This document shows positions 4,335-58,832 of a stretch of 64,000 nucleotides of DNA, piece after piece (the first letter of the stretch is position 1; each line of letters starts with the position of its first letter). The position numbers and the translations under genes were made by a program. The stretch is from Candidatus Levyibacteriota bacterium (GTDB lineage Bacteria > Patescibacteriota > Microgenomatia > Levybacterales > UBA12049), in the NCBI GenBank assembly GCA_027459725.1, contig DAIDHK010000002.1, positions 105,866 through 169,865 of the forward strand, in the 5' to 3' direction. The notes below the pieces were generated by a model that ran no database searches, had not been told where the DNA came from, and worked only from the letters and a program-made list of their open reading frames with translations.

Positions 4335-4556
4335 CTATTTCTCTTTCATAATCATATAAAGATGCACAATTACGGATACAAATAAGAAACCTACAGCATA
4401 TGACACGAGTCTCTCAGCAGTAAAAAAAATATGGGCTGCGAATAATGGAATACAGAAAACCAGGCTTAATAAGCCTGCATAAACCAACCAATTAGCCCTG
4501 GCTTTATATAACAGAACCAATAAAACAACTACAAAAACAATATCTTGAATCTTCAT
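4335..4556 (-). CDS. Small 2-TM membrane protein, translationally coupled to the upstream GtrB-like gene
   Basis: 73 aa and hydrophobic. Its start overlaps the stop of the 4556..5485 gene (TAATG). Confidence 0.4.
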   Translation of the reverse strand: MKIQDIVFVVVLLVLLYKARANWLVYAGLLSLVFCIPLFAAHIFFTAERLVSYAVGFLFVSVIVHLYMIMKEK

Positions 4557-5485
4557 TAAGCATCAGTAGAGAAACGCAACGGATGATGCGTAATTTCTTT
4601 GGCTGATGTGTTTATTATGAGGTCTGCCAAAAATCCAGTCAAGAAGGACTGTAGACCTGCTAATAGAAATAGCATCCCATATGTGAGGAGTGGTCTATCC
4701 CCAATTGTATAACCAATAAAATGCATAATTGACAAATAGATCAAAATGCCCAGACCTATAATAAATATGGCTCCTCCTAACATTCCAAAGAAGTGCATTG
4801 GTCTTTTGCTGTATTTATACAAAAAAAGCATCGTAAAAATATCTGGAAGATCTTTCCAGACTTTGGAAAAACCAAACTTAGATATGCCAAATTTTCTTTT
4901 GTCATGTTCTATAGCTACTTCTGTTACCTGAAAACCCTCCTGATAGGCCAGTAGTGGAATAAATCGATGAAATCCTCCGTATAATTTTAACGATTTTGCA
5001 CAATCTGATGTATATGCTTTAAGTCCACAATTGTAATCGTGTAATTGCAAACCCCAAAAATTACGAGCTAAGTAATTAAAAAACTTAGAAGATATGACTT
5101 TTCGTTGACTGTCTTTTCTTTTATAACGCCATCCACTAACCACATCCCACTTGTCTTGTTTAATTAATTTTAGCAATTTATTAATCTCACTCGGTCGGTC
5201 TTGCAAATCGGCATCCAAAGTTACTACAAACTCCCCCTTTGCTTTCTGGAAACCAAGTGTCAAAGCTTCTGCTTTACCTTGATTTTTACGAAAAGAAAAT
5301 ATTCTGATGGTTTTATCCTTTTTTGATATTTCTTTTAATAAGTTTAGAGATGAGTCAGTAGATCCATCATCGATAAAAACAATTTCACATACCTCTTTTG
5401 ATTTAAGAATTACTTTTTTCAGCTCCTTATAAAAAGGCTGCAAGCTCTCTTCTTCGTTATAAACCGGAACCACATAACTTATCAT
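4556..5485 (-). CDS. Polyprenyl-phosphate sugar synthase, GT2 with C-terminal TM pair (GtrB/ArnC/DPM1-like)
   Basis: VVPVYNEEESL, IDDGSTDSS and TLDADLQ GT2 core, plus two C-terminal TM helices (FFGMLGGAIFIIGLGILIYL; LLAGLQSFLTGFLADLII). Confidence 0.8.
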   Translation of the reverse strand: MISYVVPVYNEEESLQPFYKELKKVILKSKEVCEIVFIDDGSTDSSLNLLKEISKKDKTIRIFSFRKNQGKAEALTLGFQKAKGEFVVTLDADLQDRPSEINKLLKLIKQDKWDVVSGWRYKRKDSQRKVISSKFFNYLARNFWGLQLHDYNCGLKAYTSDCAKSLKLYGGFHRFIPLLAYQEGFQVTEVAIEHDKRKFGISKFGFSKVWKDLPDIFTMLFLYKYSKRPMHFFGMLGGAIFIIGLGILIYLSIMHFIGYTIGDRPLLTYGMLFLLAGLQSFLTGFLADLIINTSAKEITHHPLRFSTDA

Positions 5486-5554
5486 AGTCGTATTTTACCA
5501 TTCTTACAGGACAATGCCAAACGATAACAATAAAATCTGAAGCTCTGCTGAATA

Positions 5555-7642
5555 TTAACCTGGAATACGTCTTGTTTGATACGATCTAATGAATGAGTAG
5601 ATTAATAATATAATGATGGATATCAAACTGATCATACTTATGATAAGTCCTCTATCTACCCAAATTTGAGGGGTGTAATATACCATGTATTCGCCATTTC
5701 CTGAGATTATAAAACTGTTATACCGGGCATTATAAACTTTTGCATAAACGGATTGTTTATTAACTCCGATCAATTCCCAATGAGGATCATAATTCTCAGC
5801 AAAGACAAGCTTATCTCCTGGCAGACTATTGGTAATATTCACTTTATACTTTACCGGACTGATAAATTGAGATTGTATTGTTACTTTATCCGGTGACCAG
5901 AAGTGCTGTTTATATCCACTTAACTTAAATACCTTAATCTTGCCAAAGTCAGGCAAATCATGAAGCCATGAAATTTGGGCGATCTGAGCAATGGTCTGAT
6001 TATATATTGCAGCATCATACTTTCGATTATTCAGGAAAATTTCCCCTTCAGAATCATAAGGAACGATAATGTACTCAACTCCCGCCTCTTGTAACTGTTT
6101 CTCTGCCCCCACTGATTTAAGTTGATTTACGACTAGTGCAGGATTATAAACTTTATAAAAATCCTCGGCACTTATTTCAGGATGAGTATTTGAATAATAT
6201 CCAAAACGTTGGGGAACTGGCATCCATAAAGTCCTGGAATAATTATTTTGAGATGATAAATATTTCTGCAGTTTAATATAATCGTTGGGAACTGGTGTTG
6301 ATCTAAATGTACCACTCAACTGCCCCAGCAGGGCCGGCCGAATTAAAAACAACAGATACACAAATACAGCAAATAAAAATACATTTTGCAAATTAATAAA
6401 AGAAGATTTTGATTTTAATTGATATTTTAGATTTAAGATTTTTACTTTATTTTGACATTTCAGCCATTGGTACACCTGCCAGATGGTAAATGGTATAAGC
6501 ATTGAATATGAAATTGCCACTAATAAATACCATTTTGTTGGGTCACGAAACATTATGAATCCTGGAATGTGTGCAAACATCCAAAGATACACGAATCCAA
6601 ATGGATCATTGGCTCCTTTAGCAAGAAATGCCCCAATCAAAGCTAGAAGAGCAAAATAGAGGATATATAATTTTTGCTGTTTATTAATTCTCTTAAGAAA
6701 TAACAATGATGAAAATGCCAATATTGGCAACAATATAAATTCAGGTCTCATAAAATGAGTCAAACCGAATATATTTTCTGGCCAATTTGGATGAAGAAGA
6801 GAAATTGAATTTTCAATACGAGAAAAACTAAAGAACTTAACTGAGGTAAAGGAGGTATAAGCTGAACCAAACTGTTGTAGTGGATTTTGCTGATAAACTG
6901 CCATTGGTATTAACCAATAAGATTGAAGTAAAAAAACTGTAACACCTGGAACTATAGTAAATAATATAATTCTTTTTAGATAATCAAATACCCTAATTGA
7001 TTTATATTCTAAAATTTCATAACTTAAACATATAATAAAATAGAGATAAATTCCAACTAGAAGAATATAAGTAGTCCTTAGATCAAATATTAGTTCAAGA
7101 GAGACAAATAAGGAAAAGATAAGCAGATATTTTAAGTTATAATCCTCTACCATTCTGATGAAAGAATAGATAGTTAACGGAGTCAGGCTGTATGCAAGAC
7201 CAATCCCTGCAATTTGTCCTCCGGAAATTGTTAAAAGAATATATGTATTAAAAGAAAAGACTATAATACTGAACAACTTTATTATTACATTGTTAAATAC
7301 CTTATGTGTGAGTATTATGATTGAAATAAAAGACAAAAAAATAAATGGTAACCACCAAACTAATCGTTCAGAAATAGAAATATTTTTGTATAAAATAAAT
7401 CCTATCCAACCATAAACAAAATTTATCGGAGCTCCATGTAATAATCCTGTATTACTCCAACCCAGATTTATTTTATTTTCCCATGAAGCAAACGCATAAT
7501 TTTTAAAAAAATTTATTATTGATATAGGAAATGACTCATAATCACCTCCCGATATGGGATTATTAATAAATACTACTTTGTAAATTACTAAAAATAGAAT
7601 AAATACAGGAAAATAAACTATATAATTTTTAAATCTTTTCAT
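5555..7642 (-). CDS. Polytopic membrane protein with C-terminal extracytoplasmic domain (GT-C-like); paralog of the N-region of 7914..11435
   Basis: 695 aa with ~12 hydrophobic segments and then a soluble tail. ISGGDYESF...NLGWSNTGL is shared with SGEGGIQFGDY...GFSGTG of the 1173-aa neighbour. Confidence 0.55.
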   Translation of the reverse strand: MKRFKNYIVYFPVFILFLVIYKVVFINNPISGGDYESFPISIINFFKNYAFASWENKINLGWSNTGLLHGAPINFVYGWIGFILYKNISISERLVWWLPFIFLSFISIIILTHKVFNNVIIKLFSIIVFSFNTYILLTISGGQIAGIGLAYSLTPLTIYSFIRMVEDYNLKYLLIFSLFVSLELIFDLRTTYILLVGIYLYFIICLSYEILEYKSIRVFDYLKRIILFTIVPGVTVFLLQSYWLIPMAVYQQNPLQQFGSAYTSFTSVKFFSFSRIENSISLLHPNWPENIFGLTHFMRPEFILLPILAFSSLLFLKRINKQQKLYILYFALLALIGAFLAKGANDPFGFVYLWMFAHIPGFIMFRDPTKWYLLVAISYSMLIPFTIWQVYQWLKCQNKVKILNLKYQLKSKSSFINLQNVFLFAVFVYLLFLIRPALLGQLSGTFRSTPVPNDYIKLQKYLSSQNNYSRTLWMPVPQRFGYYSNTHPEISAEDFYKVYNPALVVNQLKSVGAEKQLQEAGVEYIIVPYDSEGEIFLNNRKYDAAIYNQTIAQIAQISWLHDLPDFGKIKVFKLSGYKQHFWSPDKVTIQSQFISPVKYKVNITNSLPGDKLVFAENYDPHWELIGVNKQSVYAKVYNARYNSFIISGNGEYMVYYTPQIWVDRGLIISMISLISIIILLIYSFIRSYQTRRIPG

Positions 7643-7907
7643 GACGAAAATCCTTAATAAAAGAAAATATTGCTGATATAGTCAACATTATAAAGGCAAT
7701 ATCCGCTAAATATCCTGCAATAATTTCGTTCTGGTATAGAATACCAAATGCACTTATAATGAGAAAAAATAGGGCTACTTTAATAAATAAGCCAATAATC
7801 TTTTTTACTCTAATCAATATACTTATCGCTACTAGCGTAAAGACTAACTCAAACAAATCCCAACCATATTTAGAGTAATAATAATATAATTCTATGTAAT
7901 AATGCAT
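7629..7907 (-). CDS. Small 3-TM membrane protein
   Basis: 92-aa hydrophobic ORF. It overlaps the start of 5555..7642 and sits between two large GT-C-like genes. Confidence 0.35.
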   Translation of the reverse strand: MHYYIELYYYYSKYGWDLFELVFTLVAISILIRVKKIIGLFIKVALFFLIISAFGILYQNEIIAGYLADIAFIMLTISAIFSFIKDFRHEKI

Positions 7908-7913: not shown

Positions 7914-10900
7914 TCAGCGATTTTTCCTATATATTTTATTGATTATATACAATATTAATACTGAGGATAGTATAAATAAACTCAATTCGGAAACTTTTAT
8001 TCCAAACTCAAAATATTCTTGAGGATAAAACTCCAACATTAACATATAATTCCCTGTCTTATCTATCTTCCACGCATTAGCATAGCTGTTAACAAGTAAA
8101 TGATTGGAATCAGAAACAGGAATTTTTGTATTACCCTTGATGTAATACAAATGCCAAAGGGAATCATATGCCTCTAAAAATGCCAGATAATAAGGGGTTT
8201 TAGCATTCTTAATGTGTATGAAGTATCTTGCTGGGTTTTGTTCAGTATAAGTTACCTGAGGTTTTATTAATGGAACAGATATCGCATCATTTTTTACTAA
8301 AAAAATATCACCTAAATCAGTTCGCCTGAATGAAAGATTCTTTACTTCAATAACTGAAGGTATATCATATTCCTTGCTATAGGCTTTGTTAGCACATAGT
8401 TTTACAGATAATATATCCCTGGAATTATTACAATTATTACCCGGATATACATAAAACTCTATCTTGCCGGAATGTGATATATGCCTGGGAGAGATTTGAG
8501 TCTCATAATGATACCAATGATTTTTATTGCCCGTATAATTTAAATTAAGACTATAATGAGGTATAAGTTTATTATTCTCAGTTAAATCAGTGTCCTCGAC
8601 GAATGATAACTGGAAAGGATTTCCAGAATCTACCTTATAATCAAAGGACAGATCATAGTTACCATAAGAATCCAACTTTTTTACTTTGACAGTATATATC
8701 TTATCTAACATTCCCTTCCCCGAGTTGTTTTTTACAGTGGATATTATTAAGTTCCTCTGATTAATCAAATTTATACCCAATAACTTTTGAAGATTAATTT
8801 GATGTTCACCCTTGTTTATGTTAAACATTCCTATTGTGGTGAATTGTGTAGAAGACATGTTTACTTGAAATGGAACTTTATTGTCAATATTGCCGGTAAA
8901 TAAATCAGAATTATAATAATTAACATATCTTTTTGATGAAATGTATAAAGTATATTTACCACTCTGAGGAACACTTACATCATAAGCCTCAAATTTCTTA
9001 AGATCTACGGGCATATAAGGTTCGATTGATAATTTTTTTAGCATATTATTCAATAAATCATAAGTTGACTGGTATATGGGCTTCTTATCATTGTATAGTT
9101 TTATCATTTCAACGATATCAGACATTACATACTTTTGACGTAAAAGATCTTCCTCATAGTTATTTTGATTTACACTAGCTAGGTTTTGATTAATATATTT
9201 TAAAGACAGATTATAATCTTGTATTGCCTTATCTGATAATGCAACATTGTTGCCTTTCAATAATTTATATACTTCTACGACCCTTTTATCAGATTCATCT
9301 ATTTTATTGGCAAAATCACTATTTCCCTGAATGAAATCAATAAATGATTCTTTTGCTCGAGTAAAGAAATACATTGGCTGCCCGGGTAAATTACTTACAT
9401 AAGGAAGCTGAGATATAACATTTGTCTTATTTATACTCAGATTTGACGGTGTATATTTGACTGCCTGTAAAATAATTTGGTGACTCTGGTTTGAAACTTG
9501 CGTGAAGGATGCAGGGTGTGTGAAATATAAGTCATTTTTTTTGTAATCTGCTAAGGGTACCGAAGTAATAAAAGACTCAGGTCCTAGTGATATAATCCCT
9601 TGATTAGCAGCAAATATCTTTGGAGTTGAATATTGCGGGTTTCCCTGATAGAAAGTCAATAAACCGAATTGTGAGACTTTCTTAATATAATTTGCAGCAT
9701 TAAGCTCCTTTTCAATATCTTGGGGGTTTTGCATTTGATCTGATTTATAGTTAGTATCTCTTCGAAGCATGATATATCTTACGTCGAGTGGGGGTAATAT
9801 TTTCCATAAATCATCAGGATATAGAGAAGTTAAAGGTTCGATATCTTTAGTAAGTCCACATAAATATTGTATGCTGGTACAATACGATATAAAGGACTGA
9901 TCGAATATACCGTTTGACAATTCAACTCCTCTATATCCATATTTCCAGTCATATGTAATACCCTCACCCCCAAGTGGAAGCGCAATCACTCGAAAATCAT
10001 CAGGTTTCTGACTGTTTAACCATTTACTGGCAGTGGAATAATAGCTTGGAACCTTGACTTTATACCCTATTCTGGGATTATTACTTGGAGGTATATAGCC
10101 TTCAAAAACTCCACCAGTCCAGATCGGAATGCAGAGAATAACAAAGCATATAATGCATATTATGATAACTAATAATATTGCCTTTATAGATGAATAGTTT
10201 CTTTTTATAAAATAAAAAAGACCAAATAAACCGAAAGCAAATAGTATAGAATAAAAAGTTGGCAAAATAAGCATTATTTTTTCGAATGGATTTCTGAAAC
10301 CTTCCATGATTCTAAAATGAGTAAATAAGAAGAGAAAAATACCACCAAAGGGATCAGCAATTCCTTTAGCCGCGAAAATCGTGAATAATGAAGCTAAGAG
10401 AAAGAAATAATAATAATGTGATTTTCTCTTAATTAATAAACTACCAAATACTATTAGAGGAGGTATAAATGTAAGTATAATAATCGGCCAACTTTGATAA
10501 TAGTAATTCCATACACCTTCCATCCATATATAAAAATCATGATGCATTAGTCTAAACACGAACGATAGGTTGCCTAATGAAGAACTTAATGCTGAGAGTG
10601 TATAATAGTCATTTGAGGAATTATACGCGGTTTGGGTCAGGTAAGGGGAGTTGGGAATTACAACCAACAATGAAATTAACCACCAACTATTGACACATAT
10701 CCACATTACCATACTTACAATTAAGAACTTTAAAATAAAAAATAAAGTTTGTCTGTTCCGCTCTTCAAATAAGTAATAATAACCAGAAAAGGCAAAAATA
10801 ATACCCCAATAATTAATTATCTCAGGCATTGATGCATACGCCATGGCAAGTAAAAAGCCTGATAAAACTAGTATCACAGAATATATAAGTTTTTTGGCTT

Positions 10901-11435
10901 CTATTGCACGTATAATTATATAAAGTGTTAAAGGGTAAAGGGCATAGAAGAATAAATAAGGGGTTTGAAACCTATTTAATATCAGTACCATTGTCACCTG
11001 ATTAAAAAGATAAAAAAATGATGCTGTTATACTTAAAAATAATCTATTGGATTGATTATATTTCGCGAATACATGTTGTGCCAGATGGTAAATAGACAAA
11101 AATCCCGTCAATAACAGAATAAAGAAAGTACTTGCCTCTATAATCACGCTGGGAATGTAAAGATTATGAACAATAAATATAGTTAATATAAATGGCAAAC
11201 TAGTTTGTGTAATACCAGTGCCCGAAAAACCAATTGTACTAGGAAACCATGATTGTCCAAATAAATTTATAAGAGTCTTATAGTCTCCAAATTGTATCCC
11301 TCCTTCCCCAGACGCCATTATATACCCAGAATGAAACCATATAGTTATTAAAATAAATATTAAAAAAAAGCTTAAAATAAAGCTGGTCACATTGGGATGT
11401 TCTTTATAAAATTTAATAAATTCTGGAGCTAACAT
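7914..11435 (-). CDS. Giant (1173 aa) GT-C-like membrane protein: ~430-aa multi-TM N-domain plus ~700-aa extracytoplasmic domain
   Basis: Long ORF. The N-terminus is rich in TM helices. The C-terminal ~700 aa is hydrophilic, rich in N/Y/S/T, and ends in a single TM (FILSSVLILYIINKI). Confidence 0.6.
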   Translation of the reverse strand: MLAPEFIKFYKEHPNVTSFILSFFLIFILITIWFHSGYIMASGEGGIQFGDYKTLINLFGQSWFPSTIGFSGTGITQTSLPFILTIFIVHNLYIPSVIIEASTFFILLLTGFLSIYHLAQHVFAKYNQSNRLFLSITASFFYLFNQVTMVLILNRFQTPYLFFYALYPLTLYIIIRAIEAKKLIYSVILVLSGFLLAMAYASMPEIINYWGIIFAFSGYYYLFEERNRQTLFFILKFLIVSMVMWICVNSWWLISLLVVIPNSPYLTQTAYNSSNDYYTLSALSSSLGNLSFVFRLMHHDFYIWMEGVWNYYYQSWPIIILTFIPPLIVFGSLLIKRKSHYYYFFLLASLFTIFAAKGIADPFGGIFLFLFTHFRIMEGFRNPFEKIMLILPTFYSILFAFGLFGLFYFIKRNYSSIKAILLVIIICIICFVILCIPIWTGGVFEGYIPPSNNPRIGYKVKVPSYYSTASKWLNSQKPDDFRVIALPLGGEGITYDWKYGYRGVELSNGIFDQSFISYCTSIQYLCGLTKDIEPLTSLYPDDLWKILPPLDVRYIMLRRDTNYKSDQMQNPQDIEKELNAANYIKKVSQFGLLTFYQGNPQYSTPKIFAANQGIISLGPESFITSVPLADYKKNDLYFTHPASFTQVSNQSHQIILQAVKYTPSNLSINKTNVISQLPYVSNLPGQPMYFFTRAKESFIDFIQGNSDFANKIDESDKRVVEVYKLLKGNNVALSDKAIQDYNLSLKYINQNLASVNQNNYEEDLLRQKYVMSDIVEMIKLYNDKKPIYQSTYDLLNNMLKKLSIEPYMPVDLKKFEAYDVSVPQSGKYTLYISSKRYVNYYNSDLFTGNIDNKVPFQVNMSSTQFTTIGMFNINKGEHQINLQKLLGINLINQRNLIISTVKNNSGKGMLDKIYTVKVKKLDSYGNYDLSFDYKVDSGNPFQLSFVEDTDLTENNKLIPHYSLNLNYTGNKNHWYHYETQISPRHISHSGKIEFYVYPGNNCNNSRDILSVKLCANKAYSKEYDIPSVIEVKNLSFRRTDLGDIFLVKNDAISVPLIKPQVTYTEQNPARYFIHIKNAKTPYYLAFLEAYDSLWHLYYIKGNTKIPVSDSNHLLVNSYANAWKIDKTGNYMLMLEFYPQEYFEFGIKVSELSLFILSSVLILYIINKIYRKNR

Positions 11436-11599
11436 ATTAATAAACTGTACTACCTAATCTGATATTGGTAGTTTACTCTTCTTGTGATAGTTGAAATACA
11501 AACCCATTAGAATTTTGTTATATGTATGCCATTTGGTGAATAGTGATACTCAATTTGTATTCACAATATAATTTTTAATGAAACTAAATATATAAAATA

Positions 11600-12262
11600 T
11601 TAATCTCTAATATCTTTCATTGCAAACATATATATTGCATTTTCGGGTTTATACATTAATAATGGTTGAAATAACATTGATATCAAAAAAAGTATGTTAG
11701 AAAATATACCATATTTAACCACAACATTTTCTTCCTTATATAGAACTCTAAGTCCTTGACCAGTTACCATATATCCCTTTTCTCGTAGGTCTTTAGGATA
11801 CCATTGTGATTTATGTGCCTGATGTTGATTCCCATCATATTCTTCCTGATGCAGATATCCAATTGGCATTGCTAAAACTACTCTTTTTTTTGCAATTTTT
11901 TCCAGCTTCCTTATTAAGTCATCTCCCTCTTTCTTAGTTAAATGCTCTATAACATGAAAACAAATCACTACATCGAAAGATTTTTCTTTAAAGGGTAATT
12001 TCCTAATATCTGAATTAATCAACTTTGTATAGACATTTTTTAATTTACATTCCTTAAGATATGGATCGTAAATGTCTACACCTGTAGCTGTATATAACTT
12101 TTTATAGTTTATGATTTCCATGGGTAATCCGGTTCCACACCCAACATCTAGAATTGTCTTGAAATTGTTACCTACCATAGATCTGAGGATACCATTATAT
12201 GTAAGAGGAAAATACGATAAAAATAATTCCCATTTTCCAATCTTTTTATTAAACATGCCCAT
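11600..12262 (-). CDS. Class I SAM-dependent methyltransferase
   Basis: ILDVGCGTGLP motif I and VIEHLTKKE. Confidence 0.8.
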   Translation of the reverse strand: MGMFNKKIGKWELFLSYFPLTYNGILRSMVGNNFKTILDVGCGTGLPMEIINYKKLYTATGVDIYDPYLKECKLKNVYTKLINSDIRKLPFKEKSFDVVICFHVIEHLTKKEGDDLIRKLEKIAKKRVVLAMPIGYLHQEEYDGNQHQAHKSQWYPKDLREKGYMVTGQGLRVLYKEENVVVKYGIFSNILFLISMLFQPLLMYKPENAIYMFAMKDIRD

Positions 12263-12265
12263 AAG

Positions 12266-13923: not shown

Positions 13924-13925
13924 TA

Positions 13926-17743: not shown

Positions 17744-17753
17744 TTCTTGAGAA

Positions 17754-34936: not shown

Positions 34937-34937
34937 A

Positions 34938-52132: not shown

Positions 52133-53836
52133 TTACTTCAATGAAATAACACTCACTACTGGTTTAGTATAAGGGTATTGTGCAAGTGTATTTTGCAAAG
52201 AAAGTACGACAGGTTTTGTAGGATCATAAAATATTTTTATGGAGTGTGCATCTGCAGGAACATCAGCACTGGCAGCCACTAATAAGGTGTTTTTGTCTGC
52301 TAAATCTTTAGACCAGTTAATTTTACGAAATTGATATTTCCCAATGCTTTTAACTGATGTGAAAAGACTGTCTGGTTGATAAACTACACTCTTTTGGAAG
52401 CTCAAAGGAGGATACTTTTGATAAAATGCCAGAGATGTATAAATGTAAGGCGTATCTGAGTCAATTACAATCTGTGAATAATTTGGCGCAAGTGACTTTA
52501 AATATAATGAAAGTGGTTTATCCGTTAGTCTCCATTCATCTGCATAAAACTTAGGAAATCTATAATAGTATGACGCCTGAAAATAGAAAAAAGAATAAAA
52601 AATTATAATTGAAATTATAACAGTAAATATCTTAAAGTATGTTTTGTTGGTTCTCTTTAAAAAACTGATTAATTCATAACAGCCGTATGCTGAGAAGAAT
52701 GTCATCGGTATTACAATAGGATAACTTCGAGTACCATGAGGCACTACTGAACTAAATCCAACTATTAAAATTAAGATTGTCCCCCATGATAAGAAAATCA
52801 TTGCCGTTTTGGTAATCCTCTTTGAAAGAAAGTATATACCAGCTACGATAAACAACAAATCTATGGGATAAAAAGCACCCACATTTCCAACTCCTACATC
52901 TCCATTCGCAGATCCTAAAGAATAGAAGAAAAAAGAGGTTGAAAAAGAGTTTACTAGATTTCTACCGTATTCCCAGATTAATAAGAAGAAACTATTAAAA
53001 AATAATGCTGATAAGAAATGGGGCAGCGGTGTCATATAGCTTCTCATCTCCACCATAGCTGCCTTAGCGTTACCTCCAAGTAATGTGACATTAGTTTCAT
53101 TATGGAATCCTGAAGCTTTAAAGAAAGTAAAAATAAAGGGTGTAATTAATGCAAAAAAAACAACTCCTAATAATATTATTTTTTTCAAACCAAGTTCACT
53201 AAATTGTTTTTTGTATATAAAAACCAGCGACAATAAAAGTAAAGGCGCATGAAATCTTGTAATGTTATATGAATATAATGCTACTACAATAGCAATTAAT
53301 GCTAGTAAATAAAATATAAATTTTTTCTTTTCAGTTGCAAGTACAAAAAACAAAGTCCCCAAAACTTCAAAACAAACCGCCATATTTACCTCAAGGGCAA
53401 CACGTGAAAAGAAAAGATTCCAGGGATTTATTGTCAGGAATAAAGCTCCTACCAAAGCTAGCCATTCATTTTTTGTTAATAATTTGAGTAGAAAATAAAA
53501 AGCAAAGATTGTAATTACACCAGCCAAAGCTGAGGGCAATCGTACTGCAAAAGCATTCTCTCCAAAAATACTTTCACTTATAACCGTAGTGTAAATATAA
53601 GCTGGCAACTTGTAATCGTTAAATGATTTAAAATATAGAGGATATTTTACTCCATGTTCATCTCTACCTGTTTGTAAAATTGAAAACGCATTAAATCCAA
53701 TCGCAGTCTCATCCTGATTCATACCAGCAGGAATAGCGGATAATTTATAGAATCTCAAAAAAATGGCTGCAACAAGAATTAATAAAAATAAACCGAGAGA
53801 TATTTTTTTTTGATATTGAGATATAAACGGAAACAT
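52133..53836 (-). CDS. GT39-family (ArnT/PMT-like) glycosyltransferase
   Basis: MNQDETAIGFNAFSILQTGRDEHGVKYP. Confidence 0.8.
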   Translation of the reverse strand: MFPFISQYQKKISLGLFLLILVAAIFLRFYKLSAIPAGMNQDETAIGFNAFSILQTGRDEHGVKYPLYFKSFNDYKLPAYIYTTVISESIFGENAFAVRLPSALAGVITIFAFYFLLKLLTKNEWLALVGALFLTINPWNLFFSRVALEVNMAVCFEVLGTLFFVLATEKKKFIFYLLALIAIVVALYSYNITRFHAPLLLLSLVFIYKKQFSELGLKKIILLGVVFFALITPFIFTFFKASGFHNETNVTLLGGNAKAAMVEMRSYMTPLPHFLSALFFNSFFLLIWEYGRNLVNSFSTSFFFYSLGSANGDVGVGNVGAFYPIDLLFIVAGIYFLSKRITKTAMIFLSWGTILILIVGFSSVVPHGTRSYPIVIPMTFFSAYGCYELISFLKRTNKTYFKIFTVIISIIIFYSFFYFQASYYYRFPKFYADEWRLTDKPLSLYLKSLAPNYSQIVIDSDTPYIYTSLAFYQKYPPLSFQKSVVYQPDSLFTSVKSIGKYQFRKINWSKDLADKNTLLVAASADVPADAHSIKIFYDPTKPVVLSLQNTLAQYPYTKPVVSVISLK

Positions 53837-53841
53837 ACTTT

Positions 53842-55383
53842 CTATGGTAAGACCTTATATAAGGTTGCATGTACTTTACCATCATTTTTAGTAATGCTAT
53901 ATACTGGTGTAACCGGCCAATCTGCTGGGGCCACACCTGTAGTGGGACAGTTCGGACACGGCTCATAGAAATAAACATAGGTCGGCATTTTTTTAGCCAT
54001 TAATGCAAGATCGTTCGGAATATTCGCCTGAATCGGCCAATATGCCTTAGTTGTAACGTTTGGATCGTTATAAAAATACATTTCAAAAGCAAATGGCATC
54101 AGACCAAAAGTACCTTGTGTAGCTACAAAAATATGTTGATTCATTGATTCATTTTTTAAATATTGAATTGACTCTTTTACACCCCAACCTGCCGGCCAAT
54201 CTAATACATACTGATTTTTGTCAGCTTGCGGAATCGGAGCATTCACAGGATCTGTAATAAAATAAATACTTACATAAAATGTCGGAAGAATTGCAATAAT
54301 AGTCAATACTAACAAATATTTTGAAAAATATTTTTCTTTAGATTTTATTAGTATTGTTGCACTACGCCAGATCCCATATGCCGCAATTGGCAATAAAACG
54401 ACTGTCATAAATAGTATGTATCGGGGAAAAATAACTTTGCCAAACATAGCATCAAAAACGAAAGGGGCAGCAAAATAAACTAGCAAGACTAATTTCTCGC
54501 GCCAAAATGATATAGATATTAAACCTACTAGTAAAAATACCATATAACTAACATTGAAATACTCCACAAACCACAAGATTAATGATTGTATATTACCGGT
54601 AAATAATTGATATTTCCAAAGTAGTGTGTGACTCAGCCAATCTTTTAAAGGATATATAAACACTGTATCTTTTAACCCAATAGTGCCATATAAAGGAGAT
54701 AATCTAAGAATAGAATACATCATCATACCTATCAAGACGGAGATCAAACCATAACCTATAGCTCTTAATATTTTATTCTTAATACCTTTCTGACTAAAAT
54801 CGAAGATAATAAACATAAACGGCATAAGAGCCATACTTATGAAAGCTCCTGCTTTTGTCAGGGCTCCACATCCTAAAATAAATCCTAGATTATAGCTGTT
54901 TTTTAAATTAACTTTACGAAATAAGATGAGGGAAAAATACAATGCCCAAACATACCACATGGCAGATAGACTGTCTTCTATGGCTAAACGATCATGTAAT
55001 AATGCAAGCGGGTAAAAAATATATAAAAGAGAACTTATAAGAGCAATCTTTGTATTTTTAAAAAATCCATAACCTAGGAAACCAACCCCAATCATACCAA
55101 AAAATCCACTGAGAACAGAAGATAACCTACCAGCTAAAAGCGGATCTTGTATAACCTTTAGAAATAGCATCATGATCCATGTCTGCATCGGAGGTTTACC
55201 ATCAGTCAAAGAGATAAATCTCCAACTTGAATCATGCAAAGCTACCTGAGCCCACCGAATATAGATAGCTTCGTCGGTAAAAATAGGTAATTTAGTCAAA
55301 AATAGTAGCCTTGTTACAAAGTATGCAATAACCAGCAAAAAACCGACAAGGATATTGTACCTGTGCTTCAAAACTAATCGCAT
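53842..55383 (-). CDS. GT39-like membrane glycosyltransferase (divergent)
   Basis: LPIFTDEAIYIRWAQ loop and ~12 TM. Confidence 0.6.
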   Translation of the reverse strand: MRLVLKHRYNILVGFLLVIAYFVTRLLFLTKLPIFTDEAIYIRWAQVALHDSSWRFISLTDGKPPMQTWIMMLFLKVIQDPLLAGRLSSVLSGFFGMIGVGFLGYGFFKNTKIALISSLLYIFYPLALLHDRLAIEDSLSAMWYVWALYFSLILFRKVNLKNSYNLGFILGCGALTKAGAFISMALMPFMFIIFDFSQKGIKNKILRAIGYGLISVLIGMMMYSILRLSPLYGTIGLKDTVFIYPLKDWLSHTLLWKYQLFTGNIQSLILWFVEYFNVSYMVFLLVGLISISFWREKLVLLVYFAAPFVFDAMFGKVIFPRYILFMTVVLLPIAAYGIWRSATILIKSKEKYFSKYLLVLTIIAILPTFYVSIYFITDPVNAPIPQADKNQYVLDWPAGWGVKESIQYLKNESMNQHIFVATQGTFGLMPFAFEMYFYNDPNVTTKAYWPIQANIPNDLALMAKKMPTYVYFYEPCPNCPTTGVAPADWPVTPVYSITKNDGKVHATLYKVLP

Positions 55384-55466: not shown

Positions 55467-56804
55467 ATGACCTCAACAAAAAATAACACATTAAAACATA
55501 AACGTTTATTATTTAACTATATCTATAAAGAAATTTCTAACCATAAATTAGAAGTCCTAACTTTTATAATCTTTCTTATTGTATTCATCTTTCTAAGATC
55601 ATACCAGTTAGAAGCAAGAATGTCCTTTAACTTTGACCAGGTAAACGGAGCCTGGGCAGCCAAGGATGCACTAGTTGATCATCACTGGCCATTAACTGGT
55701 CCAGTCGCTAAGCAAAACTCGGGTTTTTCTATGGCACCTTTATATTATTATATTTTGATTCCATTTTATTTTATTTTTAACTTACATCCCATCGCCTCGG
55801 GGGTTGCTGCTATTTTTATCAGTACCTTAACCTTTTTGTGTTTATTTTTTGTTGTTAAAAATCTATTCAATACTAAAATAGCTTTCATTGCAGCCGGTAT
55901 AGATCTTGTATCAGTATATATTATTAATTCCGATAAAATTGATTGGAATGCTGGAATAACCGTGATCACTTCTACATTGACGTTCTTTCTCCTGTACAAA
56001 ATACTAACTGGAAAAGTGAAAATGATAATTCCTTTATCTTTAGTCTTAGGTCTTTCGTTAAGCGGAGATTTTACAAATATTTTCTATTTCTTTATTGTTT
56101 TACTATCTCTTCCTTTCTTCCCCAGAAAAAGACAGGTTCTATTCTATTCCCTGCTGGGTATAGCAATAATTATTCTGATGATAAGTCCAGTTATTATAAA
56201 TGAAATGACAATGCATAGAAGTCAAGGGACTAATCTACTAACTTATATGGGAACTTATTATCATGGTTTTCACCTAACCCGATTCTTACAGCTTAGAAGA
56301 GATGCTTTTATTGAGTTTGTGATGATTTTTGGCAACAATATTGTGAGCTATTTTGATTTTCTTCTTCCTTTACTATTTATATTTCTTTATGTACGTCAGC
56401 ACAAGAACAAAGAAGCAATCATTTTTTCAATACTTGTCGTTCTCTGGTTTTTTATTCCATGGCTAGTTTTTACAGCTTATAGCGGAGAAATAAGCAACTA
56501 TTATTTTTATATGACCCGTCCTGTTATCTTAATGATGCTAGCATATTTCACTTATAGACTTCTATTTACTCAGCAATTAATTATAATAATATTCGTAGTT
56601 ATTTTTTGGGGATATTTTTCTTACTCTAACTTAATAACTTTTTTTCAAGAGAATCCGGGAAATGATTTTCTTAATGCCAAACATTTGATTACACCTGAGG
56701 TTCAGGCACATAATACTAGCGTGAGACATATTTACTCAACTCCAGAAGCATATCTGCAATTTTATTATGAGGACTATAAAAACTTTAACTTAAATGATAA
56801 TTAA
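55467..56804 (+). CDS. Polytopic membrane protein (GT-C-like, unassigned)
   Basis: 445 aa with 12+ TM. Loop FDQVNGAWAAKDALVDHHWPLTGP. Confidence 0.5.
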   Translation: MTSTKNNTLKHKRLLFNYIYKEISNHKLEVLTFIIFLIVFIFLRSYQLEARMSFNFDQVNGAWAAKDALVDHHWPLTGPVAKQNSGFSMAPLYYYILIPFYFIFNLHPIASGVAAIFISTLTFLCLFFVVKNLFNTKIAFIAAGIDLVSVYIINSDKIDWNAGITVITSTLTFFLLYKILTGKVKMIIPLSLVLGLSLSGDFTNIFYFFIVLLSLPFFPRKRQVLFYSLLGIAIIILMISPVIINEMTMHRSQGTNLLTYMGTYYHGFHLTRFLQLRRDAFIEFVMIFGNNIVSYFDFLLPLLFIFLYVRQHKNKEAIIFSILVVLWFFIPWLVFTAYSGEISNYYFYMTRPVILMMLAYFTYRLLFTQQLIIIIFVVIFWGYFSYSNLITFFQENPGNDFLNAKHLITPEVQAHNTSVRHIYSTPEAYLQFYYEDYKNFNLNDN

Positions 56805-58072
56805 GGCTTCACAACTGCATTGTATATCTGTTTGAGAGAATATAGACCACCAATCACACTTGCTGCAATCATTATATACATATATGCTAGTTCCTGATCG
56901 ATAAACCAAAATGAGCTCCATAAGCCAGTAAAAAGATAAGGTAAATATGTTAATTGGGCAAGAAAAGTAAGCAATACAATAAACCCTTTAAGATATTTAT
57001 TTTGCAGTAATGGTAGAAAAGTCACTACATACATCAGATACCACGGCTGAAACTCTGTACGGAAAATAGCCAATGTTATAGCACCTATCATGAATATCAC
57101 CATCATATTGAGAAGATAAAAAGGAATAGAGTCTTTCCCTTTTTTTTGTATAAAGTAAATCCAAATAAAAATGGGTAACAATACTATAGTAGCGTATTTA
57201 ATTAAAGCTGATGCTATTAGTAATAACACAGCCCACCAAAACCTTTTATTTATAAGCAGATAAAATCCAAATACTGCAAAAAACATCATAACGATATCAT
57301 TATGACTGGAGACTAGTGACTCAAGAACTACTAAAGGATTCAAAGCAAATAATACTATCCCTAAGCTTTTTTTTGACTGATAAAGTTTATCAAGAATTTT
57401 GTATAAATAGAAAACAGTACCAAGATAAGCGGATGTCATCAGAATCTTAAACAAATAAAAAGTAAGTATAAAAATATGCATTCCCACAAATGAAAAAGGT
57501 AATGTTATTAACAACCACAATGGTCCATATGCCTGTGCATATGTTCTATTTGTCCAGCGCATGAATCCAAGCATAGGATCATGGGGATAATCTTGAGCCT
57601 TGTGTAAATATGGATTTTGGTGATAGTACGTTAAGATTCGTGCGTCAAAGATATAATTAAATAAATCATAAGACAACATGTTATATGAAAAGGTGAGAAT
57701 AATTGCTGTCAGCCCTATCAAAGTTACTATCAAAGGAAATGATATTTTTCTTAGATGTATTATTCTTAATGTATATAAATACAAAGAAAAGAAAACTATT
57801 ACCATTAGACAAAATAAAAAAGTAGATAAAGGGCGATTAAAATAACCTATATATTGAAATTGTCTCTCAATAGCATATAACCAAGGAACTCTACTAATAA
57901 CCAAACCCAAATCAGCCTGAGTGTAACTTAAAAGTAAGAGCAATATTAGGAATATTCCCCAAGAAGTTGCTACAATTTTTTCTATTTTTGTTCCTTCTTT
58001 ATAAACAAATTTCAAATTGCTAACGAATAATTTAAAGGGAGATAGAAACTTTTTCACATTATTTATAAACAC
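56801..58072 (-). CDS. Polytopic membrane protein (GT-C-like, unassigned)
   Basis: 423 aa and highly hydrophobic. Its start overlaps the end of the DPM1-like gene 58059..58832. Confidence 0.5.
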   Translation of the reverse strand: MFINNVKKFLSPFKLFVSNLKFVYKEGTKIEKIVATSWGIFLILLLLLSYTQADLGLVISRVPWLYAIERQFQYIGYFNRPLSTFLFCLMVIVFFSLYLYTLRIIHLRKISFPLIVTLIGLTAIILTFSYNMLSYDLFNYIFDARILTYYHQNPYLHKAQDYPHDPMLGFMRWTNRTYAQAYGPLWLLITLPFSFVGMHIFILTFYLFKILMTSAYLGTVFYLYKILDKLYQSKKSLGIVLFALNPLVVLESLVSSHNDIVMMFFAVFGFYLLINKRFWWAVLLLIASALIKYATIVLLPIFIWIYFIQKKGKDSIPFYLLNMMVIFMIGAITLAIFRTEFQPWYLMYVVTFLPLLQNKYLKGFIVLLTFLAQLTYLPYLFTGLWSSFWFIDQELAYMYIMIAASVIGGLYSLKQIYNAVVKP

Positions 58073-58832
58073 CAGAGATAATGTTCTTTTTTATTGCAAG
58101 CAAGTCGATAAATCCGGCTATTGAACTGCGTAAAGGGCTTACTCTTCTTGTCTCGACATGTAACCAACGAACAGGTATTTCTTTTATATTGTACCCCAAC
58201 TGTTTGGCTAAATAAAGAATTTCCATATCCATACCTGCTGAAACATTTGCCCCTGAGACATTTTTAAAGCCATGATGAATTTCTGAAAACTTTGTGAAAA
58301 GTCTCTGAGCACTCTTGTGGGTGAACATTTTGAAGCCGCATTGGGTATCGACAATTTCTGGTAGACCGATCAGCATTTTACGCAGCACTACTGCTGCTAT
58401 TGAAACAAATTTTCGAGTCCAGGGCGCACCTTGACGTTGATTACTTCGAGACCCAATCACTATATCATAACCATCTTTGGTAAAAGGGAAAAATTTACTT
58501 ACTTCTTCAATAGGAGTGGCCTGATCCATATCAGAAAATAAAATATTTTCTCCTTTGGCGGCTAAGACCCCTGTCGTAACCGCTCCGGCTTTCCCACTAT
58601 GTTGATTCTTAATCAGAGAGAAATTATCGTTTTGTTTAATAAAATCTTCTATGAACTCAACGCTTCCATCATGGGATCCATCATCGACTACAACGACTTC
58701 ATAATAGTACTTGGTTCTATCTAGAAAATGTTGTACTTTGTCGAGAACACCTTTTTGTAGGTTAGCCATTTCATCGTAACATGGAATTACAACTGATAAA
58801 TATATTTTCCCGTTCACAGAGAAATTATACAA
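58059..58832 (-). CDS. DPM1-like polyprenyl-phosphate sugar synthase (soluble GT2)
   Basis: LSVVIPCYDEMANL, VVDDGSHDGS and FSDMDQA. The ORF-track start is TTG at 58832, but that TTG lies inside a -10 box, so the real start is probably GTG at 58817. Confidence 0.7.
   Translation of the reverse strand: MYNFSVNGKIYLSVVIPCYDEMANLQKGVLDKVQHFLDRTKYYYEVVVVDDGSHDGSVEFIEDFIKQNDNFSLIKNQHSGKAGAVTTGVLAAKGENILFSDMDQATPIEEVSKFFPFTKDGYDIVIGSRSNQRQGAPWTRKFVSIAAVVLRKMLIGLPEIVDTQCGFKMFTHKSAQRLFTKFSEIHHGFKNVSGANVSAGMDMEILYLAKQLGYNIKEIPVRWLHVETRRVSPLRSSIAGFIDLLAIKKNIISGVYK

Follow-up and report, generated by a model that had tools for sequence, protein, structure and literature searches.

Precedents for multi-component transmembrane glycosylation comprise GT-A/GT-C pairs, Wzx-type flippases, and small 3-TM helpers (PMC8035078; PMC11127046; PMC4728340), and repeated GT-A/GT-C pairs within one genome are already described, since both B. 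subtilis and L. lactis have three (PMC8035078). The Gram-positive systems (CsbB/GtcA/YfhO, GtlA/GtlB, CsdAB/CD/EF with CflA of L. lactis, and GacI/GacJ/GacK/GacL of S. pyogenes) have in common with the locus described here a GT2 gene for a polyprenyl-phosphate glycosyltransferase (PI-GT) adjoining a GT-C gene, several such pairs per genome, YfhO-type GT-Cs, and a monoderm host. To our knowledge, teichoic acids are undescribed for Patescibacteria. Unlike the Gram-positive systems, our Levybacteria-like genome of the Patescibacteria gathers five predicted lipid-sugar synthases (SYN1-5) and ~16 membrane GT-Cs in one conserved block of ~60 kb, together with two flippase-like (MOP/Wzx) genes. Several GT-Cs accompany each synthase (a synthase to GT-C ratio of ~1:3), four synthases are devoid of TM helices, no GtrA/GtcA-type gene occurs in the window (the whole stretch of 64,000 nucleotides that was analysed), and no protein reaches orthologue-level similarity. 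The logic of a lipid-P-sugar donor and a GT-C transferase is likewise shared with GtrA/GtrB/GtrC O-antigen glucosylation and ArnC/ArnE-F/ArnT lipid A modification of Enterobacteria (PMC11127046; PMC4728340), and SYN1 aligns full-length to ArnC and GtrB, both TM helices included. However, its identity is ~30% or less, homologues of GtrA or ArnE/F are missing here, and its partners are a 73-aa protein and a family of GT-C fold for which Pfam has no model. The modular GtrABC-like logic of the original prediction can thus not be taken literally, given the lack of a GtrA-type gene in the window and flippase-like genes that are of MOP/Wzx type.

The actinobacterial Ppm1/PpgS systems (with Pmt, the GT87 enzymes MptA/MptB/PimE, and AftD) resemble the cluster in their soluble, TM-less PI-GT catalytic proteins, in one lipid-sugar donor for many GT-Cs, in the GT87-family gene beside SYN5, and in a weak AftD-like match of the 1173-aa protein (PF11847, E 5.7e-4, below cut-off). 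In contrast to them, the genes are clustered and operon-like here, the synthases are distant from Ppm1 and PpgS, and no partner like Ppm2 or Rv3632 turned up. A likeness to eukaryotic and archaeal DPM1, ALG5, and AglJ/AglK (with PMT, ALG, and STT3/AglB) lies in public annotations as dolichol-type enzymes: some of the >8000 SYN3 homologues in Patescibacteria (62-69% identity) are named dolichol-phosphate mannosyltransferase, and SYN5 orthologues dolichyl-phosphate beta-glucosyltransferase. Moreover, SYN neighbours have PMT- and STT3-type Pfam matches, and the predicted structure of the 695-aa protein (o5555) has a GT-C fold closest to Pmt4 and STT3B, but all this similarity is at family level only. 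The cluster follows, on a larger scale, the logic of known multi-component glycosylation systems (GtrB/CsbB-type plus GT-C), and the system type itself is not new.

The window probably covers most of one conserved cell-surface glycosylation supercluster (Table 1) of a Levybacteria-like, Microgenomatia-type genome of the ultra-small Patescibacteria. GT-C-like genes account for 18 of its 45 genes (~40%). Pfam GT-C families (PMT_2, PMT, STT3, PTPS_related, YfhO, and GT87) were found in 13 SYN neighbours, o15989 and o30021 were tied to PMT_2 types by hhalign, and the 1173-aa protein is a distant paralogue of o5555 (blastp E 1e-13; hhalign 97%). For two further large membrane proteins (31516-33258 and 44114-45742) hhalign found no GT-C link. 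The original prediction had assigned the triplet downstream of SYN3 to GT39, an assignment not established by its PMT_2/PMT Pfam matches, which reach 29-44 bits; PDB gave no sequence match.

Table 1. Synthase genes and their neighbours in the window (window positions).
Feature	Coordinates	Strand	Family or match
SYN1, GtrB/ArnC-like polyprenyl-phosphate glycosyltransferase, 309 aa	4556-5485	-	PF00535
Small membrane protein, 73 aa, three hydrophobic segments, SYN1 partner	4335-4556	-	ORF
Polytopic membrane protein o5555, 695 aa	5555-7642	-	GT-C fold; family without Pfam model
Membrane protein, 1173 aa	7914-11435	-	weak AftD GT-C match
SYN2, soluble PI-GT-like GT2, 248 aa	21643-22389	-	PF00535
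GT4 glycosyltransferase downstream of SYN2	20540-21727	-	PF00534
MOP/Wzx-like membrane protein upstream of SYN2, 422 aa	22370-23638	-	PF13440 E 3.4e-11
SYN3, soluble DPM1/AglJ-like PI-GT, 236 aa	38323-39033	-	PF00535; AglJ 114 bits; PpgS 75.6 bits over 5-214
Three paralogous PMT_2-type GT-Cs downstream of SYN3	33260-34936, 34938-36584, 36581-38299	-	PF13231/PF02366
GT2 upstream of SYN3, 316 aa	39030-39980	-	PF00535
YfhO-type GT-C upstream of SYN3, 744 aa	39995-42229	-	PF09586 E 1.8e-17
SYN4, soluble PI-GT, 237 aa	48073-48786	-	PF00535; PDB ArnC E 2.9e-15 over 6-208, DPMS over 7-193
Wzx/MOP flippase-family protein downstream of SYN4, 483 aa	46635-48086	-	PF13440 E 1e-49
Two paralogous PTPS_related/STT3-like GT-Cs upstream of SYN4	48783-50477, 50474-52129	-	PF10131 E 2e-16, PF02516 E 7e-7
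Two PMT_2-type GT-Cs	52133-53836, 53842-55383	-	PF13231 E ~3e-10
SYN5, soluble ALG5-like PI-GT, 257-aa ORF, first gene of block	58059-58832	-	PF00535; PDB GtrB E 2e-15
GT87/MptA-B-family GT-C downstream of SYN5, 423 aa	56801-58072	-	PF09594 E 3e-6

All five predicted GT2 genes were present as ORFs, and within the window each finds its best matches among the other four, at 25-31% identity across 175-240 aa (E 1e-11 to 1e-22), while the eight other GT2 genes of the window align to them over the N-terminal ~110 aa only. The best NCBIfam and PDB matches of SYN1-5 are ArnC, PgfS, AglJ, PpgS, GtrB, and DPMS (of Pyrococcus), e.g. ArnC (E 4e-37) and GtrB (E 2.5e-24) over 2-304 of SYN1 or DPMS and ArnC (E ~5e-16) for SYN3, in contrast to EpsD, MftF, or rhamnosyltransferase types for the eight other GT2 genes used as a control. 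A profile built from SYN1-5 matched ArnC (135 bits) and DPMS (116 bits) over positions ~5-225 of 235, whereas the next fold class, chondroitin synthase, aligned to the N-terminal half only; homology to PI-GTs extends through the acceptor/juxtamembrane half. SYN5, whose true length is probably 252 aa judging from its homologues, gave an AF2 model (pLDDT 82) with GtrB, ArnC, or DPMS as all of the top 25 Foldseek matches (E 4.5e-14 to 2.6e-11; next 1.5e-9). DxD is present in four of the five proteins (DAD in SYN1, DGD in SYN4), the Asp and Lys of a D-x-x-C/G-G-x-K segment aligning to ‘DYGCMLR’ of ArnC are invariant, and the ‘ED’ acceptor-base motif of other GT2 genes in the window is absent from all five. 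So is QxxRW, the hallmark by which the original prediction would have recognised processive GT2 enzymes. The C-terminal TM helices anticipated for SYN1 were confirmed (residues 229-261 and 271-291), as was the lack of TM segments in the other four. These features support the placement of SYN1-5 in a single polyprenyl-phosphate glycosyltransferase subfamily (PI-GT; DPM1/GtrB/ArnC), not among processive GT2 enzymes, with an activity that is predicted from sequence.

ArnC and DPMS fall inside the SYN group of an NJ tree and the other GT2 genes outside, but the scores of all five SYN proteins fall far short of all NCBIfam equivalog cut-offs (36-76 bits against 370 for PpgS; 150.7 bits over 2-290 of SYN1 against 529 for ArnC), and therefore orthology to any characterised synthase is not shown. 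SYN1-5 form five deep clades in the tree and are deep paralogues (<=31% identity), each with its own conserved orthologue group and neighbours, which fits functional specialisation and module-like coupling. The several distinct polyprenyl-P-sugars of the original prediction, however, do not follow from sequence, given the scores under all cut-offs.

Adjacency of synthases and GT-Cs within the window is no better than chance (permutation P = 0.16-0.50) because ~40% of the genes are GT-C-like. Along with the scores under the cut-offs and the missing TM anchor in four of five, this would suit GT2 enzymes of the ordinary, non-processive kind with Und-PP-linked or other acceptors, whose GT-C neighbours are a by-product of a very GT-C-dense cluster. 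Such an explanation is nevertheless very improbable in view of the PI-GT matches through the acceptor half, which the eight other GT2 genes do not have, the predicted fold of SYN5, the missing ‘ED’ motif, and specific neighbours that stay invariant while the genes around them vary between loci. The linkage of the synthases to their partners is real since it is kept in other genomes, although phylogenetic inertia among related genomes may explain part of this signal. The 695-aa family lies upstream of SYN1 in 3/3 orthologous loci, the 73-aa gene is a further conserved neighbour, and one SYN1 orthologue (L086) is 91% identical. A GT-C follows SYN3 in 3/3 loci, the PMT_2 array itself is conserved, and the order GT4>YfhO>GT2>SYN3 is kept in five (L001, L002, L003, L102, L131). 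For SYN4, whose metagenomic orthologues share 58-69% identity, a MOP gene sits directly 3' in all 42 loci and a homologue of the GT-C at 48783 directly 5' in 40 of 41; the PMT_2 pair at 52133-55383 is syntenic in L004, L005, and L089-L134. The GT87 gene is downstream of SYN5 in 7/7 loci. The claim that every synthase directly flanks GT-C or other large membrane proteins stands as linkage across genomes, but SYN2 is flanked by GT4 and MOP/Wzx-like genes and not by a GT-C. Similarly, each synthase has its own conserved neighbours, but the ~1:3 ratio and flippase-like genes beside only two of five (SYN2 and SYN4) do not agree with a dedicated GT-C and flippase for each.

We consider a scheme likely in which SYN1-5 make lipid-P-sugars that are flipped and used by GT-Cs outside. 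Family, fold, paralogue distinctness, and linkage are shown by the data, while activity, carrier, sugars, flipping, acceptor, and the matching of GT-Cs to donors are inferred. [quoted passage not shown] SYN1 would be membrane-held through its own two TM helices, while SYN2-5 might dock via amphipathic juxtamembrane helices or a partner protein, like DPM1, Ppm1, PpgS, and GacI; no partner subunit was identified for these four. Candidates for flipping are the MOP/Wzx-like proteins beside SYN2 and SYN4, the latter with NCBIfam matches to MOP flippase (138.7 bits) and O-glycosylation flippase (114 bits), and beside SYN1 the 73-aa protein may serve as flippase or accessory protein. Once flipped, the sugars would be donors to the ~16 transferases of GT-C fold whose genes lie next to the synthases, and these transferases may glycosylate extracytoplasmic acceptors such as wall polymers, lipoglycans, or surface proteins. 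GT4, other GT2, methyltransferases, and an acetyltransferase would make and tailor the portion of the glycan that belongs to the cytoplasm.

Instead of mere decoration of a pre-made polymer, the arrays of 2-6 GT-Cs that follow each synthase could build or polymerise a heteroglycan stepwise from five lipid-linked monosaccharide donors, in an extracytoplasmic assembly line like that of mycobacterial lipomannan/lipoarabinomannan. GT87 enzymes are mannan builders that depend on polyprenyl-P-mannose, and the SYN5-paired protein matches an alpha-1,6-mannosyltransferase model (TIGR03459, E 1.7e-12). The excess of GT-Cs over synthases, the tandem paralogous arrays (PMT_2 x3 at 33-35% identity, PTPS_related x2 at 30%, and PMT_2 x2), and the variable copy number among close relatives (four PMT_2 genes beside SYN3 in L001, three here) point in the same direction. 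However, the GT-C paralogues might just as well each decorate a specific acceptor, cf. the type-specific Gtr enzymes of Shigella, the numerous GT4/GT2 genes for cytoplasmic enzymes, along with a Wzy_C-type protein, suggest a conventional Und-PP-linked backbone as well, and no glycan structure is known from any Microgenomatia, so that stepwise assembly is possible but doubtful.

The conserved partners of SYN2 are MOP and GT4 genes: among 73 loci from several phyla, a MOP gene is directly upstream of its orthologue in 47, a GT4 directly 3' in 36, and a GT-C a direct neighbour in one. Orthologues occur in many classes of Patescibacteria, in Eremiobacterota, and in Gaiellaceae. SYN2 carries D-A-G-x-D in place of DxD, a variant kept in Patescibacterial orthologues, whereas non-CPR orthologues have DADxD; at positions important in GtrB it has Lys for the R122-equivalent and lacks an evident counterpart of R200. 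Its PDB match is DPMS (E 7e-14 over 6-175), and the models of PpgS (coverage 4-203/226), AglJ, and PgfS matched too. Classical MOP/Wzx substrates are Und-PP-oligosaccharides. SYN2 might be an initiating enzyme instead of a donor synthase, its polyprenyl-monophosphate-hexose being extended by flanking GT4/GT2 in the cytoplasm and flipped by the adjacent MOP, cf. archaeal AglJ-type N-glycan assembly on dolichyl monophosphate. The conserved core GT4 > MOP > SYN2 > GT4, the absence of a phosphoglycosyl transferase (Bac_transf or MraY/WecA type) among window ORFs of at least 150 aa, and the oligosaccharide-lipids that MOP/Wzx proteins normally flip (PMC11127046) would agree with this role. We regard it as unlikely, given that bacteria are not known to extend polyprenyl-monophosphate sugars, that the priming enzyme may sit outside the window, and that Wzx- or MATE-type flippases have been proposed for Und-P-monosaccharides, namely GacK and C. 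youngae ORF14 (PMC11127046; PMC8035078).

GacK, of Wzx type, and the small 3-TM helper GacJ are precedents for the MOP/Wzx and 73-aa proteins of the cluster (PMC8035078), and the 73-aa protein, which matched no Pfam family, is by analogy a possible GacJ-like accessory or flippase subunit. Its gene had not been picked up in the original prediction; copies with 47-67% identity adjoin the GtrB-like gene, on either side, in three other loci (L086, L087, L088).

The five synthase genes (SYN1 to SYN5) are present where the original prediction had placed them, and five lines of evidence mark them as a genuine subgroup among the 13 GT2 genes of the window. All five products carry the GT-A fold GT2 catalytic domain (PF00535, E 1e-23 to 5e-35) and are mutual best matches within the window (25-31% identity over 175-240 residues, E 1e-11 to 1e-22), whereas the other eight GT2 proteins, used as a control set, match them solely over the N-terminal nucleotide-binding region of about 110 residues. 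The best NCBIfam models for SYN1-5 are ArnC, PgfS, AglJ, PpgS and a haloarchaeal dolichyl-phosphate hexose transferase, with matches that often span almost the full model, while the models closest to the control set are of EpsD, MftF, rhamnosyltransferase or SunS type. ArnC, GtrB (sll0501) and Pyrococcus DPMS are the nearest solved structures for each of the five. A profile of the five sequences scores 135 bits against ArnC, 116 bits against DPMS and 108 bits against GtrB, covering positions ~5-225 of 235 for ArnC and DPMS and 3-178 for GtrB, and the next fold class, chondroitin synthase, is matched at profile positions 7-132 only. Likewise, the AlphaFold model of SYN5 (39 homologues, pLDDT 82, pTM 0.84) has a GT-A fold, and its 25 best Foldseek matches are all chains of GtrB, ArnC and DPMS (E 4.5e-14 to 2.6e-11, TM-score up to 0.73 over ~240 columns), with other GT2 folds following from E 1.5e-9. 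The phylogeny against characterised enzymes is a neighbour-joining tree without bootstrap whose only references are ArnC and PfDPMS fragments taken from alignments; both references fall within the SYN group, and four other GT2 proteins of the window lie outside it on a long branch.

By family and fold membership, SYN1-5 are thus placed with the polyprenyl-phosphate glycosyltransferases (PI-GTs) of the DPM1/GtrB/ArnC type, and they would act as polyprenyl-phosphate-sugar synthases. Processive GT2 enzymes of the cellulose, chitin or PNAG type, the alternative named in the original prediction, were rejected: a motif scan found [QR]xxRW in none of the 13 GT2 proteins, and SYN1-5 have 236-309 aa with 0-2 transmembrane (TM) helices, compared with the multi-TM channel of processive synthases. 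Because all scores stay far below the NCBIfam equivalog cut-offs (SYN1 with ArnC 150.7 against 529, SYN3 with AglJ 114 against 325, and SYN2, SYN4 and SYN5 with PgfS 54-70 bits against 500), sugar specificity is not transferable from characterised synthases; the source names "dolichol-phosphate mannosyltransferase" and "dolichyl-phosphate beta-glucosyltransferase" are automatic annotations. That the five paralogues make different sugars is nonetheless plausible, since they share at most 31% identity with each other but more than 60% within orthologue groups across classes.

In GtrB, the metal/nucleotide-sugar motif DxD is D94-x-D96, and D157 and the juxtamembrane basic residues R122, R125, K132 and R200 on two amphipathic helices have also been described (PMC4728340). 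Judged from alignments, these motifs are largely present in SYN1-5. DxD occurs in four of them (DAD in SYN1 and SYN3, DGD in SYN4, DMD in SYN5) and as a variant in one, since SYN2 has DAGMD. The counterpart of D157 is an invariant D150, accompanied by K156 (SYN1 numbering), in all five, and the D-x-x-(C/G)-G-x-(K/R) segment aligns to "DYGCMLR" of ArnC and "DPVSGFF" of DPMS. The G-x-R motif is found in four of the five, SYN2 having G-S-K instead, without a clear counterpart of R200. Homology to ArnC and DPMS runs through the juxtamembrane region up to profile position ~225/235. In the predicted structure of SYN5, helices span residues 138-154 and 233-253 and ~240 columns align to GtrB and ArnC; scanning for juxtamembrane helices by hydrophobic moment did not discriminate. 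As originally predicted, SYN1 is TM-anchored and the other four are soluble: SYN1 has two TM helices (229-261 and 271-291), through which its alignment to ArnC and GtrB extends, and SYN2-5 have none. No partner subunit that could anchor SYN2-5 in the membrane was identified; catalytic subunits without TM helices have precedents in DPM1, which works with DPM2/3 (PMC4728340), and in GacI, which works with GacJ (PMC8035078).

The block that holds the synthases starts just downstream of tRNA-Glu(CTC), and an Rfam scan of the window found nothing besides tRNA. From 1 to 58.8 kb nearly all genes are on the minus strand, tightly packed and with ~32% G+C. Pfam and NCBIfam scans of every ORF of at least 150 aa in the window yielded, besides the 13 GT2 genes, seven GT4 genes or fragments, three methyltransferases, one hexapeptide acetyltransferase, one NAD-dependent epimerase/dehydratase, two MOP/Wzx-type membrane proteins and 18 further large polytopic membrane proteins, 13 of which match GT-C families (PMT_2, PMT, STT3, PTPS_related, YfhO, GT87 and, weakly, AftD). 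No phosphoglycosyl transferase was found among these ORFs. Judged by its homologues, the sequence belongs to Patescibacteria, with Candidatus Levybacteria/Levyibacteriota MAGs as the nearest, and an NCBI contig of 204,891 bp carries a protein 100% identical to one of the window. Proteins 85-91% identical to those of the window occur in the sister genome GCA_027459745.1 (L086), including a 1063-aa Wzy_C-type protein that is 90% identical to the product at the left edge of the window. After this gene, L086 has a further PMT_2 GT-C gene and a GT4 gene, and since the left edge cuts the Wzy_C-type gene, the cluster extends past the window.

Features of the window referred to in the text, in order of position
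Feature	Position	Strand	Description
Wzy_C-type gene	1-1146	minus	O-antigen polymerase/ligase-like; cut by left edge, N-terminal 382 residues
Full-length GT4	2658-3791	minus	
Half-GT4	3794-4333	minus	179 aa; N-terminal half only of a GT4 (Glyco_transf_4)
73-aa ORF	4335-4556	minus	Three hydrophobic segments; abuts SYN1; absent from the original prediction
SYN1	4556-5485	minus	
695-aa protein	5555-7642		
92-aa ORF	7629-7907		
Hypervariable cassette	7914-20543		
SYN2	21643-22389	minus	
First plus-strand cluster gene	25778-27268	plus	PMT_2-related, GT-C-like
Non-coding gap	27269-27795	minus	
61-aa ORF	27440-27625	minus	
First SunS-like GT2	27796-28557	minus	~250 aa; Glyco_tranf_2_4/SunS-like
580-aa protein	31516-33258	minus	Polytopic
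PMT_2-type triplet	33260-38299		Three paralogous genes
SYN3	38323-39033	minus	
Second SunS-like GT2	43362-44111	minus	~250 aa; Glyco_tranf_2_4/SunS-like
542-aa protein	44114-45742	minus	Polytopic
SYN4	48073-48786	minus	
Second plus-strand cluster gene	55467-56804	plus	PMT_2-related, GT-C-like
SYN5	58059-58832	minus	
tRNA-Glu(CTC)	58950-59023		
AAA_14/DUF4143 ATPase	59310-60497	plus	Beyond the cluster
PIN-domain toxin with small upstream ORF	61233-61885	minus	Beyond the cluster

The original prediction had each synthase adjoining GT-C genes. This stands for SYN1, SYN3, SYN4 and SYN5, which have them as direct neighbours in the window, and falls for SYN2, whose orthologues have a GT-C gene as direct neighbour in 1 of 73 loci. 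Adjacency within the window is at chance level (P = 0.16-0.50 in random gene orders, 18 of 45 genes being GT-C-like), a result unchanged when only the 13 GT2 slots are permuted, and was rejected as evidence of linkage, which rests on other genomes. SYN1 orthologues are preceded by a member of the 695-aa family in 3/3 loci. SYN3 is flanked by a 316-aa GT2 on one side and by the first gene of the PMT_2-type triplet on the other; among its orthologues the 316-aa GT2 comes before in 5/6 and a GT-C gene of PMT_2 or YfhO type after in 3/3. SYN4 lies between a PTPS_related/STT3-like GT-C gene and a Wzx/MOP gene, and a metagenome scan returned orthologues at 58-69% identity; among 45 orthologues the same type of GT-C gene is retained directly upstream in 40/41 and the same type of MOP gene directly downstream in 42/42, the denominators being those with sequence available, while genes farther out vary. 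SYN5 is upstream of a GT87/MptA-B-type gene, and a GT87-type gene follows its orthologues in 7/7 loci. Moreover, the order SYN5, GT87, PMT_2, (YfhO), two PTPS_related genes, SYN4, MOP recurs on independent contigs (L102 and L131 among them), where it continues past MOP with GT2 genes, GT4, YfhO, GT2 and SYN3. It is unlikely that the five are ordinary GT2 enzymes whose neighbourhood is incidental, given that the control GT2 genes differ from them and that their partners are invariant.

The SYN4 slot of another related locus (L004, 19152-19877), between a PTPS_related pair and a Wzx gene, is occupied by a sixth PI-GT-like type that is just 25-27% identical to any of SYN1-5, and the neighbour-joining tree contains further clades from related loci. 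This non-orthologous replacement, together with the additional clades, means that the synthase within a module is exchangeable.

SYN2 has no GT-C contact; its neighbours are a MOP/Wzx-like gene on one side and a GT4 gene on the other. A scan of GTDB species genomes recovered its orthologues in Levy-, Gottesman-, Woese-, Davies-, Roizman- and Shapirobacteria, as well as in WWE3, Saccharibacteria, Eremiobacterota and Gaiellaceae. Of the 73 loci, 47 have a MOP-like gene directly upstream and nine more have another polytopic protein, unassigned, in that place; 36 have GT4 directly downstream. The MOP-SYN2-GT4 core is very widely conserved, and it is new in detail. The motif that replaces DxD in SYN2 takes the form D-[AGS]-G-x-D across Patescibacterial orthologues, in which G-S-K is likewise kept in place of G-x-R, and non-CPR orthologues (Eremiobacterota, Actinomycetota) retain DADxD. 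DTQxGxK is conserved in 73 orthologues. The SYN2 variant (loci L006-L085) is a lineage-wide active-site variant. Rather than supplying a monosaccharide donor, SYN2 may, like archaeal AglJ, initiate an oligosaccharide linked to polyprenyl monophosphate, a reading favoured by its MOP and GT4 partners and by there being no priming phosphoglycosyl transferase in view.

Among the membrane partners, the 695-aa neighbour of SYN1 has a GT-C membrane fold according to a predicted model and fold comparison, and an invariant D34 (S-G-G-D) comes just behind the first TM helix in 50 homologues, a candidate for the conserved acidic residue of the first extracytoplasmic loop in GT-C enzymes. The 73-aa protein recurs at 47-67% identity beside the GtrB-like gene, on either side of it, in three other genomes; it has no significant Pfam match, the sole one being to DUF2754 (E 0.026, below the cut-off). 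New in detail is this GT-C fold family, for which Pfam has no model, together with its conserved 73-aa companion. The 92-aa ORF, likewise without a significant Pfam match, was dropped as a partner gene because it is not conserved. Each gene of the PMT_2-type triplet matches PF13231 (29-44 bits) and one of the three also PF02366 (28.9 bits, cut-off 22.7); there was no match to PDB sequences at E 0.01 or better. Profile matches place the triplet at the level of the PMT_2 clan, and the earlier label "GT39" exceeds what the data allow. Pfam searches at E up to 10 returned nothing for five large membrane proteins, and neither did PDB sequence searches with three GT-C proteins; links of unmatched proteins to GT-C come from fold comparison and local profile-profile comparison only. 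The 580-aa and 542-aa proteins are distant kin of each other (hhalign 95-97%), with no Pfam match and no profile link to the GT-C families of the window. Both are conserved in related loci.

Multi-component transmembrane glycosylation is an established scheme (PMC11127046, PMC8035078), and it is the best-supported reading of the cluster. A GT2 PI-GT would make a polyprenyl-P-sugar on the inner membrane face, a flippase would export it, and a GT-C enzyme would pass the sugar on to an extracytoplasmic acceptor. Family and fold membership, deep divergence of the paralogues with conservation of each, and conserved linkage to particular membrane partners were obtained directly; we infer the activity, carrier lipid, sugars, flipping step, acceptor and pairing of donors with transferases. 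Of the GtrABC-like logic originally proposed, the synthase/GT-C linkage holds for SYN1, SYN3, SYN4 and SYN5, and the GtrA component does not: PF04138 had no match in ORFs of at least 150 aa, in the 73-aa and 92-aa intergenic ORFs, or in five of the seven ORFs of 60-149 aa at 60.5-63.2 kb. A GtrA gene could be located elsewhere in the genome. In its stead, MOP/Wzx-type proteins are found beside SYN2 and SYN4 and the small three-segment membrane protein beside SYN1. Each compositional peculiarity of the cluster has a precedent. Several GT-A/GT-C pairs per genome are known from B. subtilis (CsbB/YfhO, YkoT/YkoS, YkcC/YkcB) and from L. lactis, where CsdAB, CsdCD and CsdEF share a single flippase (PMC8035078). 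GacK and C. youngae ORF14 have been proposed as Wzx- or MATE-type flippases that take the place of GtrA (PMC11127046, PMC8035078), and GacJ is a small 3-TM synthase helper (PMC8035078).

The cluster is built from known components by a known logic, to which its five synthase orthologue groups add uncharacterised members; what is new in detail is the scale, with five synthases and ~16 GT-Cs in 60 kb. A literature search, limited to the searched collection, yielded no account of the cluster and none of a Patescibacterial GT-C/PI-GT expansion. Genomes of Microgenomatia-type Patescibacteria are about 1 Mb in size, and that of the window is probably near this. At least 60 kb, with gene order kept across many groundwater and soil lineages, appears to be given to lipid-linked-sugar-dependent extracytoplasmic glycosylation. 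To our knowledge, very little of the cell envelope of Patescibacteria (CPR) has been characterised. Patescibacteria are thought to be host-attached, so that surface glycans probably hold a central place in their biology. The five synthase orthologue groups, the GT-C family without a Pfam model, its 73-aa partner and the MOP-synthase-GT4 core are testable enzyme candidates. The mechanism fits the established three-component or multi-component paradigm, so that the worth of the cluster lies in a catalogue and a source of hypotheses and not in a new principle.

In mycobacteria, polyprenyl-P-mannose is one donor serving many GT-Cs, and the GT-C arrays of the cluster may, as in lipomannan synthesis, build a polymer outside the cell rather than decorate one. 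A bolder and, taken as a whole, rather improbable reading would make the conserved supercluster of at least 60 kb an extracytoplasmic assembly line. At least five polyprenyl-P-monosaccharide donors and ~16 GT-Cs, including the 695-aa type with its 73-aa partner, would then build, and not merely decorate, a complex surface heteroglycan or protein glycan, and the SYN2-MOP-GT4 branch would, as in archaea, start from polyprenyl monophosphate. If this were true, strain-specific surfaces, relevant to host attachment or phage evasion, would arise from the hypervariable cassette (7.9-20.5 kb). Compared with L086, the cassette is hypervariable while the flanking modules are shared at 66-91% protein identity. 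In the window it comprises a 1173-aa protein, three methyltransferases, GT2 and GT4 genes and a 584-aa membrane protein; L086 has instead a DegT aminotransferase, a GFO_IDH oxidoreductase, a formyltransferase, an Epimerase_2 and proteins of 776 and 338 aa. The 695-aa GT-C is only 55% identical between the two. This pattern resembles the diversification of O-antigen or capsule loci.

Several smaller features accompany the cluster. Its sole plus-strand genes have weak Pfam matches and hhalign probabilities of 98-100% to the 28559/30021 group, and they split the minus-strand genes into separate transcription blocks. The one sizeable non-coding gap contains short ORF fragments; the 61-aa ORF within it is similar, by eye, to the N-terminal "LPLLGQFTSAGPF..." region of the adjoining plus-strand gene, and the gap looks like a remnant of a decayed GT-C gene. 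The two SunS-like GT2 proteins are not PI-GT-like. In most SYN2 loci the first of these types marks the end of the GT-C arrays, right ahead of the epimerase gene; in many SYN4 loci it follows the Wzx gene. The AAA_14/DUF4143 gene is also found inside or beside the cluster in three related loci (L012, L059 and L087). Finally, the half-GT4 is followed by the full-length GT4, and because the same split (178-190 aa plus 378 aa) is kept in L086 and the related L088, it represents a real separate gene and no pseudogene; the pair is reminiscent of split enzymes of the Alg13/Alg14 type.
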